Shown here one piece after another: positions 17,805 through 18,054 of a DNA stretch of 64,000 nt. Made by a program: the position numbers and the translations under genes. Where the stretch lies: NCBI GenBank assembly GCA_014435945.1, contig GCA_014435945.1_4088.1. The stretch is one strand, 5' to 3'. Within the stretch, counting starts at the first letter, position 1; every line of letters begins with the position of its first letter. The notes below the pieces were generated by a model, which saw only the letters and a program-made list of their open reading frames with translations, made no database searches and was not told where the DNA came from. Source of the DNA: a phage.

Positions 17805-17877
17805 GCCGACTTAGCTCAGTAGGTAGAGCAACTGACTTGTAATCAGTAGGTCACCAGTTCGATTCCGGTAGTCGGCA
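17805..17877 (+). tRNA. tRNA-Thr (anticodon TGT)
   Basis: Acceptor GCCGACT/AGTCGGC, anticodon stem ACTGA/TCAGT with loop CTTGTAA, T loop TTCGATT. Confidence 0.75.
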
Positions 17878-17884
17878 CAAATCA

Positions 17885-17957
17885 GCCGTTTTAGCTCAGT
17901 TGGTAGAGCAATCGCCTTGTAAGCGATAGGTCATCTGTTCGAGTCAGATAAACGGCA
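17885..17957 (+). tRNA. tRNA, anticodon TGT (Thr-type), copy 1
   Basis: Acceptor GCCGTTT/AAACGGC, D arm GCTC-AGTTGGTA-GAGC, anticodon loop CTTGTAA, T arm ATCTG-TTCGAGT-CAGAT. Confidence 0.75.
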
Positions 17958-17964
17958 CAAATCA

Positions 17965-18037
17965 GCCGTTTTAGCTCAGTTGGTAGAGCAATCGCCTTGT
18001 AAGCGATAGGTCATCTGTTCGAGTCAGATAAACGGCA
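17965..18037 (+). tRNA. tRNA, anticodon TGT (Thr-type), copy 2
   Basis: Identical to 17885..17957. Confidence 0.75.
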
Positions 18038-18054
18038 CAAAATAAAGGTACACT

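Follow-up and report, generated by a model that had tools for sequence, protein, structure and literature searches.

Three tRNA-Thr(UGU) genes in tandem in a jumbo coliphage: a host-identical copy next to a duplicated variant with a rewritten anticodon stem

Why should a phage carry, in a row, three tRNA genes with the same anticodon, the first indistinguishable from a gene of its host and the other two indistinguishable from each other? The question is raised by a 64,000-nucleotide (nt) stretch of phage DNA (contig GCA_014435945.1_4088.1 of NCBI GenBank assembly GCA_014435945.1), here termed the window, in which three tRNA-Thr(UGU) genes lie head-to-tail on the plus strand. Judged from its sequence, the window belongs to a jumbo Escherichia coli myovirus of the genus Asteriusvirus (121Q/PBECO4 group). 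The assignment is based on the best matches, which are Asteriusvirus genomes: the 1.3 kb around the array is 95-96% identical to Ecwhy_1, CMSTMSU, Turkey3 and fEgEco12. The explanation we favour, and regard as moderately likely, has three parts: supply of a tRNA that reads ACA and ACU codons, replacement of the host tRNA-ThrU by a form that would resist nucleases, and a recent duplication of the resistant copy through microhomology.

ARAGORN predicts tRNA-Thr(tgt) at 17805-17878, 17885-17958 and 17965-18038, with the anticodon at position 34, and the Rfam tRNA model RF00005 scores 73.8, 73.9 and 73.9 bits (gathering score 29) at 17805-17877, 17885-17957 and 17965-18037. These 73-nt genes are termed copies A, B and B'. 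All three have the anticodon loop CTTGTAA (7 nt, with U33 and A37), and thus the two programs agree with the first-pass annotation, which had described three tRNAs of Thr type with one loop. The spacer between A and B, CAAATCA (7 nt, 17878-17884), recurs between B and B' (17958-17964), so that the array is built of 80-bp units in which a 73-nt tRNA is followed by a 7-nt spacer. Tandem Repeats Finder reports a period of 80, 3.0 copies and 89% matches at 17800-18041; the figure of 89% reflects copy A, which is a diverged unit. B' is an exact duplicate of B. An exact 80-bp tandem repeat had been noted earlier; the identity of the second and third copies and the 80-bp period hold, whereas the exact repeat is 89 bp long. 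The duplicated segment (17873-18041, plus strand) is composed of two overlapping 89-bp copies, 17873-17961 and 17953-18041, i.e. one 80-bp period plus a 9-bp microhomology, CGGCACAAA. The 9-mer is present at every unit boundary (17873-17881, 17953-17961 and 18033-18041). An exact repeat of this length within 64 kb is far above chance expectation. The array tRNAs do not encode the 3'-terminal CCA (...GGCA-CAA), and the host CCA-adding enzyme would therefore be needed. No tRNA repair or CCA-adding gene is found in the fEgEco12 annotation of the syntenic 50 kb, which lists only hypothetical proteins, HNH endonucleases, a sigma factor and a methyltransferase.

At 73 of 73 positions copy A is identical to thrU, the E. 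coli chromosomal gene for tRNA-Thr(UGU), which opens the thrU-tyrU cluster. Of 5426 complete E. coli genomes, 5421 have a match to copy A, and the identity is ≥99% in 5420 records. The likeness ends with the mature tRNA: upstream of it the phage sequence is unrelated to that of the host, and the CCA that the host gene encodes is missing. A trace of capture at the DNA level, in the form of homology extending into the host thrU flanks, was not found around copy A. A weak likeness can be seen between the phage spacer CAAATCA and CAAGTCC of the host (5/7, counted after removal of the host CCA from the thrU-tyrU spacer TCAAGTCC). Capture from the host operon may have left this vestige, or it may be due to chance.

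Copies B and B' differ from A at 16 of 73 positions (5, 6, 17, 28, 29, 31, 39, 41, 42, 50, 52, 59, 62, 64, 67 and 68). These comprise the base pairs 5-68, 6-67, 28-42, 29-41, 31-39, 50-64 and 52-62 together with loop positions 17 and 59, and hence the differences are nearly all compensatory stem changes, in keeping with the earlier remark that the first tRNA differs in its stems. Three of the five anticodon-stem pairs are rewritten relative to thrU (C28U/G42A, U29C/A41G and A31C/U39G), which gives the stem AUCGC/GCGAU, and the loop is identical to that of the host. Pairs G1-C72 and C2-G71 with G35 and U36, which we take to be the identity set of E. coli threonyl-tRNA synthetase (ThrRS), are common to A and B, as is A73. 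E. coli chromosomes do not contain B; the closest matches in E. coli (85-86%) are tRNA-Thr genes, nearly all of them plasmid-borne. A bacterial donor was not found in 185,579 GTDB species genomes, either with the full-length sequence or with a stem-wildcarded pattern, and the 5' 50 nt of B with the stem wildcarded have no match in IMG/VR. Among 50,697 phage records B occurs at ≥97% only in Ecwhy_1, BF17, CMSTMSU, fEgEco12 and Turkey3, once in each. The nearest matches outside Asteriusvirus are tRNA-Thr genes of Streptomyces phages (90-92%), a likeness that probably represents a generic tRNA-Thr consensus and not ancestry. By these comparisons B is a phage-only tRNA-Thr(UGU) isoacceptor with the host loop and the ThrRS elements.

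The rewritten stem is the part of the tRNA that two Toprim nucleases act on. P2 OLD, of the common P2 prophage, kills through cleavage of tRNA-ThrU in the anticodon stem, where it cuts the E. coli tRNA after C28 and C40 in paired CNG motifs (PMC12445682). Phage tRNA-Thr(UGU) rescues from OLD, and the anticodon arm is the resistance determinant. The best-studied resistant variant, Thr6, needs both G30C/C40G and U43A, the latter of which shortens the stem; alteration of CNG alone (C28U/G42A) gave no protection, stem shortening being needed as well, and overexpressed host ThrU did not protect (PMC12445682). A 2026 preprint confirms Thr(UGU) as a top OLD target and reports strong rescue by the tRNA-Thr of T4, Bas32, Bas33 and HK446, partial rescue by that of T5, and none by that of E. 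coli (bioRxiv 10.64898/2026.07.10.737580). AriB, the nuclease of PARIS, has Lys(UUU) as its main target and also cuts host tRNA-Thr(UGU) between positions 40 and 41, in the motif U36AAUC/A41 (the slash marks the cut). Cleavage of tRNA-Lys by AriB is abolished by U39A and inhibited by A41C. In T5Mos, the tRNA-Thr supplied from the phage genome was insufficient in dose (PMC12409363).

When the array is compared with these sites, the copies separate. Copy A has the host stem ACUGA/UCAGU, with the paired CNG motif (CUG/CAG) intact and the AriB motif unchanged (UAAUCA at 36-41). B and B' have CNG on neither strand and read UAAGCG at 36-41. They carry U39G and A41G, and B is predicted to resist AriB on the basis of substitutions at 39 and 41, positions whose effect was established for tRNA-Lys. 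With respect to OLD, the CNG motif is altered in B and B', and the stem is not shortened, as the A27-U43 pair is kept. Shortening is seen only in two alleles of relatives, a2 and a6 (stem AUCCC/GGGAA, UAAGGG at 36-41), which combine G30C/C40G with an A27.A43 mismatch and thus have the full OLD-resistance recipe. The T5 tRNA-Thr (stem GUUGC/GCAUC, UAAGCA) has G30-C40 and C31-G39 in common with B, and the T4 tRNA-Thr (stem CCUCA/UGAGG, UAAUGA) carries G30C/C40G. Two other notions were rejected: copy A as a nuclease decoy, in view of the failure of overexpressed host ThrU to protect in two studies, and mutation of the anticodon loop as an evasion route, in view of the invariance of the loop across alleles.

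Related phages show that change at this place in the genome, termed here the Thr slot, is focused on the stem. The comparison covers 28 related genomes or contigs, including 16 GenBank relatives, one extra NCBI assembly and ten further genomes or contigs, and yields 12 tRNA-Thr(UGU) alleles, all with UGU. In an alignment of nine 73-nt alleles from the slot, pairing in the cloverleaf holds for 96.3% of cells, and compensatory change on both sides is seen in 11 pairs; the anticodon stem is the sole helix in which all five pairs are changed on both sides. The loop C32-A38 and the pairs G1-C72, C2-G71 and C3-G70 are invariant, as are G35, U36 and A73. C28, U39 and A41 are missing from all eight non-host alleles in the alignment. 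The PBECO4-type allele consists of the thrU body with nine differences, all of them within the ten anticodon-stem positions (ACUGA/UCAGU to AUCCC/GGGAA). The 121Q and A4 alleles have UUCCU/GGGAA on the thrU body, and the second copy in Turkey3 differs from B by a compensatory G30C/C40G. Only one allele has the host-type stem, and this allele is found in the B-carrying clade and, separately, in E9.1, whose flanks are nested among PBECO4-like ones; its presence in two places suggests repeated exchange. It should be pointed out that the flank phylogenies are mosaic and inflated by insertions and deletions: they support the clade of B carriers and the separate origin of the E9.1 host-type allele, and cannot fix the direction of stem changes. 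Stem-only diversification is common to the Thr slot and to a second slot of the same tRNA cluster, which holds a tRNA(CAU).

Some relatives have a very different occupant of the Thr slot. A wholly different, AT-rich tRNA-Thr(UGU) is found in TH47 and vB_Ec-M-J; in vB_Ec-M-J, the only annotated record of the pair, an HNH gene follows. UE-S1, several metagenome contigs and one JGI contig likewise have a wholly different AT-rich tRNA-Thr(UGU) in the slot (examples of the divergent type are at L010:2003-2075, L014:1946-2018, L021:3195-3269 and L027:3187-3260). In EJP2 the slot has no tRNA-Thr, and gene turnover at the locus is very high. In Asteriusvirus at least five different genes occupy the tRNA(CAU) slot (L001-L016; e.g. 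L002:2050-2128 versus L009:756-834), of which the Ecwhy_1-type and PBECO4-type genes share a body and have swapped stems (GCCCC/GGGGT versus AACGA/TCGTT).

How did the third unit arise? The arrays of the 28 relatives have 0, 1 or 2 units, never three, and the comparison with related genomes that had been proposed for this locus thus sets the window apart. When 1-unit (E9.1, PBECO4), 2-unit (Ecwhy_1, BF17, Turkey3) and 3-unit (window) arrays are aligned, the differences between them are exact 80-bp units, and each extra unit is inserted after CGGCACAAA. Two B copies occur in no other phage record. The B-to-B junction (...GATAAACGGCACAAATCAGCCGTTTT..., or GATAAACGGCACAAATCAGCCGTTTTAGC) has no match in IMG/VR or in JGI metagenomes, either as an exact 37-mer or in a spacer-degenerate version. 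The third unit can be looked at as a recent duplication because of the perfect identity of B and B', the 9-bp microhomology at its bounds and its lack of a counterpart in the relatives, and the earlier suggestion to this effect is supported. In a 2-unit ancestor, CGGCACAAA would end both A and B, 80 bp apart, a classic substrate for slippage or unequal recombination, and very recent replication slippage or unequal recombination between the 9-bp repeats would give the array of the window.

The first-pass annotation had also raised an assembly error as a source of the repeat, and here an independent assembly is informative. In an index of 153 billion genes, the proteins of the open reading frames (ORFs) at 18055-18480 and 16726-16983 are found only in the Logan assembly of SRR1984092, a run for which a literature search found no descriptive paper. 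Two contigs of that assembly agree with the window at every base, over 5109 and 3469 bp. The upstream contig, 99.6 kb long, stops at 17834, exactly 30 nt into copy A, as would be expected of a k=31 graph that branches where host thrU reads share A. (Logan uses k=31.) The start of the downstream contig, 18012, lies exactly 30 nt upstream of the first base that follows the repeat. When the window sequence is analysed at k=31, only a B-to-B junction gives the 30-mer 18012-18041 two successors; with A and B alone, the downstream contig would reach back to about 17849. This gives indirect but specific support for the existence of B-to-B junction reads in SRR1984092.

Codon usage offers a possible reason for having a tRNA-Thr(UGU). 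The window has a GC content of 34.8%, with mostly small ORFs on the plus strand. In 105 ORFs the Thr codons are ACA 38%, ACT 43%, ACC 11% and ACG 8%, which gives ACA and ACU together a share of 81%. The preferred Thr codons of E. coli are ACC and ACG; the host tRNA-Thr(UGU), the product of a single gene and modified to cmo5U34, reads ACA, ACG and ACU. The other tRNAs of the phage cluster match the phage-enriched codons AGA, AGT, ATA and AAT.

From these elements the favoured explanation can be assembled. The locus is a tRNA-Thr(UGU) slot in a tRNA cluster among early genes, and the array would raise the supply of a low-abundance decoder of ACA, ACU and ACG in a genome of 35% GC. Copy B would replace host tRNA-ThrU once OLD or AriB has destroyed the host tRNA, a role suggested by the lack in B of sequence features that these nucleases need. 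Duplication of B would then double the dose of the resistant species. Codon supply and defence evasion are not mutually exclusive.

Several points weigh against this explanation. The resistance of B to OLD is uncertain, because alteration of CNG alone failed to protect, while B retains a 5-bp anticodon stem and C40. With regard to PARIS, tRNA-Lys(UUU) was found neither in the window, nor in the fetched tRNA stretches of relatives, nor in the published list of six tRNAs of fEgEco12; as this is the main AriB target, the array could not neutralize PARIS alone. The phage tRNA-Asn, moreover, keeps the UAAUCA motif. Copy A, host-identical and presumably sensitive, is retained, which fits dosage better than defence. 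The number of B copies, two or more, is not fixed by the read evidence, and a perfect duplicate may be neutral and transient. Finally, it is from comparisons that we infer, for this phage, expression, aminoacylation, nuclease resistance and an adaptive role of the duplication.

These points raise the question of whether codon supply alone suffices, the stem differences having arisen through neutral compensatory drift or as noise from recombination, and the duplication being a change in dosage or a neutral accident that has nothing to do with defence. We consider this rather unlikely, yet it has the Thr codon usage at 34.8% GC and the match of the other cluster tRNAs to phage-preferred codons in its favour, as well as the retention of the host-identical copy in six genomes and the presence of solely a host-type copy in E9.1. 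Drift, however, should touch all helices, whereas the alleles with a thrU body change nine of ten anticodon-stem positions and leave the acceptor, D and T stems unchanged. The three nucleotides that all eight non-host alleles lack are, moreover, those tied experimentally to cleavage by AriB or OLD, and in the tRNA(CAU) slot, too, a stem is swapped while the body stays fixed. A bolder proposal, to which we give only tentative credence, is that the Thr and tRNA(CAU) slots are both arms-race cassettes in which stems are swapped onto a fixed, host-derived body and copy number is a rapid dose response. Swaps would take place by gene conversion between array units, between co-infecting phages and with the host chromosomal thrU, and units would expand by microhomology slippage against P2 OLD and PARIS, the window having been caught in mid-expansion. 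Stems might instead reflect escape from, or gene conversion by, HNH/NUMOD4 homing endonucleases, which populate these clusters and cut the DNA of tRNA genes, with cassettes turned over at the DNA level and not evading anything at the RNA level. HNH genes do lie in or beside the tRNA cluster in the window (14170-14694), Turkey3, Turkey5, vB_Ec-M-J and UE-S1, the very divergent allele shared by TH47 and vB_Ec-M-J adjoins one in vB_Ec-M-J, the flank trees are mosaic, and SegB of T4 and the heg genes of T5 are also located within tRNA clusters. Such turnover leaves unexplained why the changes spare other helices and coincide with RNA cleavage sites, and in the window the Thr array has no endonuclease gene next to it; we regard such turnover as improbable.

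Could the third copy be an artefact, a repeat expansion or misjoin in a genome that has A and B only? The closest relatives all have two units or fewer, and assemblies are notoriously prone to error at perfect short tandem repeats. Against this, assemblers usually collapse perfect repeats and do not expand them, and a contig start at 18012 requires that the 3' 30-mer of B have two successors, as a B-to-B junction provides; there is thus little chance that the third copy was created by assembly. The last alternative, which we judge highly improbable, is that the copies differ in amino acid identity despite the shared anticodon, as the first-pass annotation had considered, or that they have a role outside translation as decoy, primer or attachment site. 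A and B do differ at 16 positions, and the authors of both the OLD and PARIS studies raised the possibility of competitive inhibition by overexpressed tRNAs. A difference in identity is not supported, as the ThrRS elements are shared by all copies and invariant across nine alleles, and both A and B score as canonical tRNAs at about 74 bits. Northern data from two studies show that phage tRNA-Thr leaves the host tRNA unprotected, and overexpression of host ThrU gave no protection.

The array is part of a larger tRNA region. In fEgEco12 the annotation of the syntenic region consists almost wholly of hypothetical early genes. A promoter sequence with a 12/12 match to the sigma-70 consensus, TTGACA-N16-TATAAT, is located at 17486-17513 on the plus strand, about 290 nt upstream of the array, and no terminator-like site was found between the two. 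This promoter probably drives, as far as the sequence allows one to say, an early transcript with two small ORFs and the three tRNAs. Perfect sigma-70 promoters are also seen at 13516-13544 and 13661-13689 (plus strand), making three within 4 kb, and are accompanied by several 11/12 sites; such a density is typical of an early region dependent on host RNA polymerase.

Four other tRNA genes, all on the plus strand and detected by both ARAGORN and Rfam, precede the array: tRNA-Arg(UCU) at 14065-14138, a type II tRNA-Ser(ACU) at 16439-16530, the long-arm tRNA(CAU) at 16538-16627 (termed 'Met'(cat) by ARAGORN) and tRNA-Asn(GUU) at 16632-16705. Directly downstream of tRNA-Arg(UCU) is an ORF of 174 amino acids (14170-14694, plus strand) that resembles a NUMOD4/HNH_3 homing endonuclease. 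In the relatives Turkey3, Turkey5, vB_Ec-M-J and UE-S1, HNH genes are found at varying points of the tRNA cluster, and these shifting positions suggest endonuclease-driven mosaicism of the cluster. Three abutting ORFs of 54 amino acids, each starting MTHEEWM, are present at 14733-15219 (plus strand); the first two are identical at 34 of 54 positions and the third is diverged, which describes a small tandem array of paralogues.

Two of the tRNAs are odd in themselves. The ACU anticodon of tRNA-Ser, with A34, is unusual in bacteria; the gene is identical in 121Q, SP27 and Turkey3, other relatives have tRNA-Ser(GCU) instead, and Turkey3 has both. Among the Ser codons of the window AGT accounts for 33% and AGC for 7%. 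The tRNA(CAU) is unusually long (87-90 nt), has an encoded CCA and scores 50.3 bits with Rfam. Its variable arm has 4 bp (GTCA/TGAC) and a 7-nt loop, its T-loop reads TTAGAAT (A replaces C56) and its D-loop lacks GG. A type-II-like tRNA bearing CAU is peculiar. The gene is identical in G17, phAPEC6, Sharanji, ECO103 4-12-1 and EC22.5-2, and the jumbo phages Kaldavass and XbC2, of Erwinia and Xanthomonas, have it at 84% identity. In its loop and in acceptor pairs C4-G69 and C5-G68 the tRNA(CAU) is similar to E. coli ileX. Perhaps it decodes AUA, which accounts for 23% of the Ile codons in the window.

If B does resist OLD or AriB, then the stems of A, B, the PBECO4 type and the 121Q type, all set on a nearly constant body, form a natural minimal test set that could be used to dissect what Toprim anticodon-stem nucleases recognize. 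The arrays of one, two and three units likewise constitute a natural dose series, which raises the question of whether phage tRNA copy number is tuned by host defence. There is also a practical side, as Asteriusvirus phages are under characterization for therapy and the tRNA-Thr allele may help predict plating on E. coli that is P2-lysogenic or PARIS-positive. If B is not resistant, the window shows an ordinary duplication of a phage tRNA. The parts that merit follow-up are the stem-only diversification on a host-identical body and the series of one, two and three units.

The closest known parallels are the tRNA-Thr(UGU) genes that rescue from OLD (Thr6 and Thr21 of a coliphage library, and those of T4, Bas32, Bas33, HK446 and T5). 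Like the array, these have UGU within a CUUGUAA loop and are carried by virulent coliphages, and their differences from thrU concentrate at the OLD cut sites in the stem. Allele a2 of the relatives carries G30C/C40G plus U43A, exactly the two changes of the Thr6 recipe. Unlike this set, B keeps a full-length stem and C40, the variant lies next to a host-identical copy, and it is tandemly duplicated. With respect to PARIS and T5, B is changed at 39 and 41, the positions of the resistance mutations in the T5 tRNA-Lys, and it resembles the T5 tRNA-Thr in the two stem pairs given above. The case differs from that of T5 in that tRNA-Lys(UUU) was not found in the phage sequence examined and the tRNA-Asn has the AriB motif, and for these reasons evasion of PARIS through the array tRNAs would be incomplete.

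The tRNA clusters of T4 and T5 are similar to that of Asteriusvirus in their location in the early region, in serving phage-favoured codons and in having HNH/GIY-YIG genes and small ORFs interspersed. The Asteriusvirus cluster, unlike these, is small, with five to seven genes, all of which decode ANN codons, and one of its members is 100% identical to a host tRNA. The two-copy arrays of Ecwhy_1, BF17, CMSTMSU, fEgEco12 and Turkey3 share the locus, the spacer and the flanks with the window, and 'two tRNA-Thr' are on record for fEgEco12 (PMC13070987). In Ecwhy_1, BF17 and CMSTMSU the A and B sequences are identical to those of the window, which differs from its two-copy relatives by one extra, exact 80-bp B unit that is in no other record. 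Stem-altered phage tRNA-Thr genes that rescue from a nuclease are already known, and the array would be a further example of the kind.

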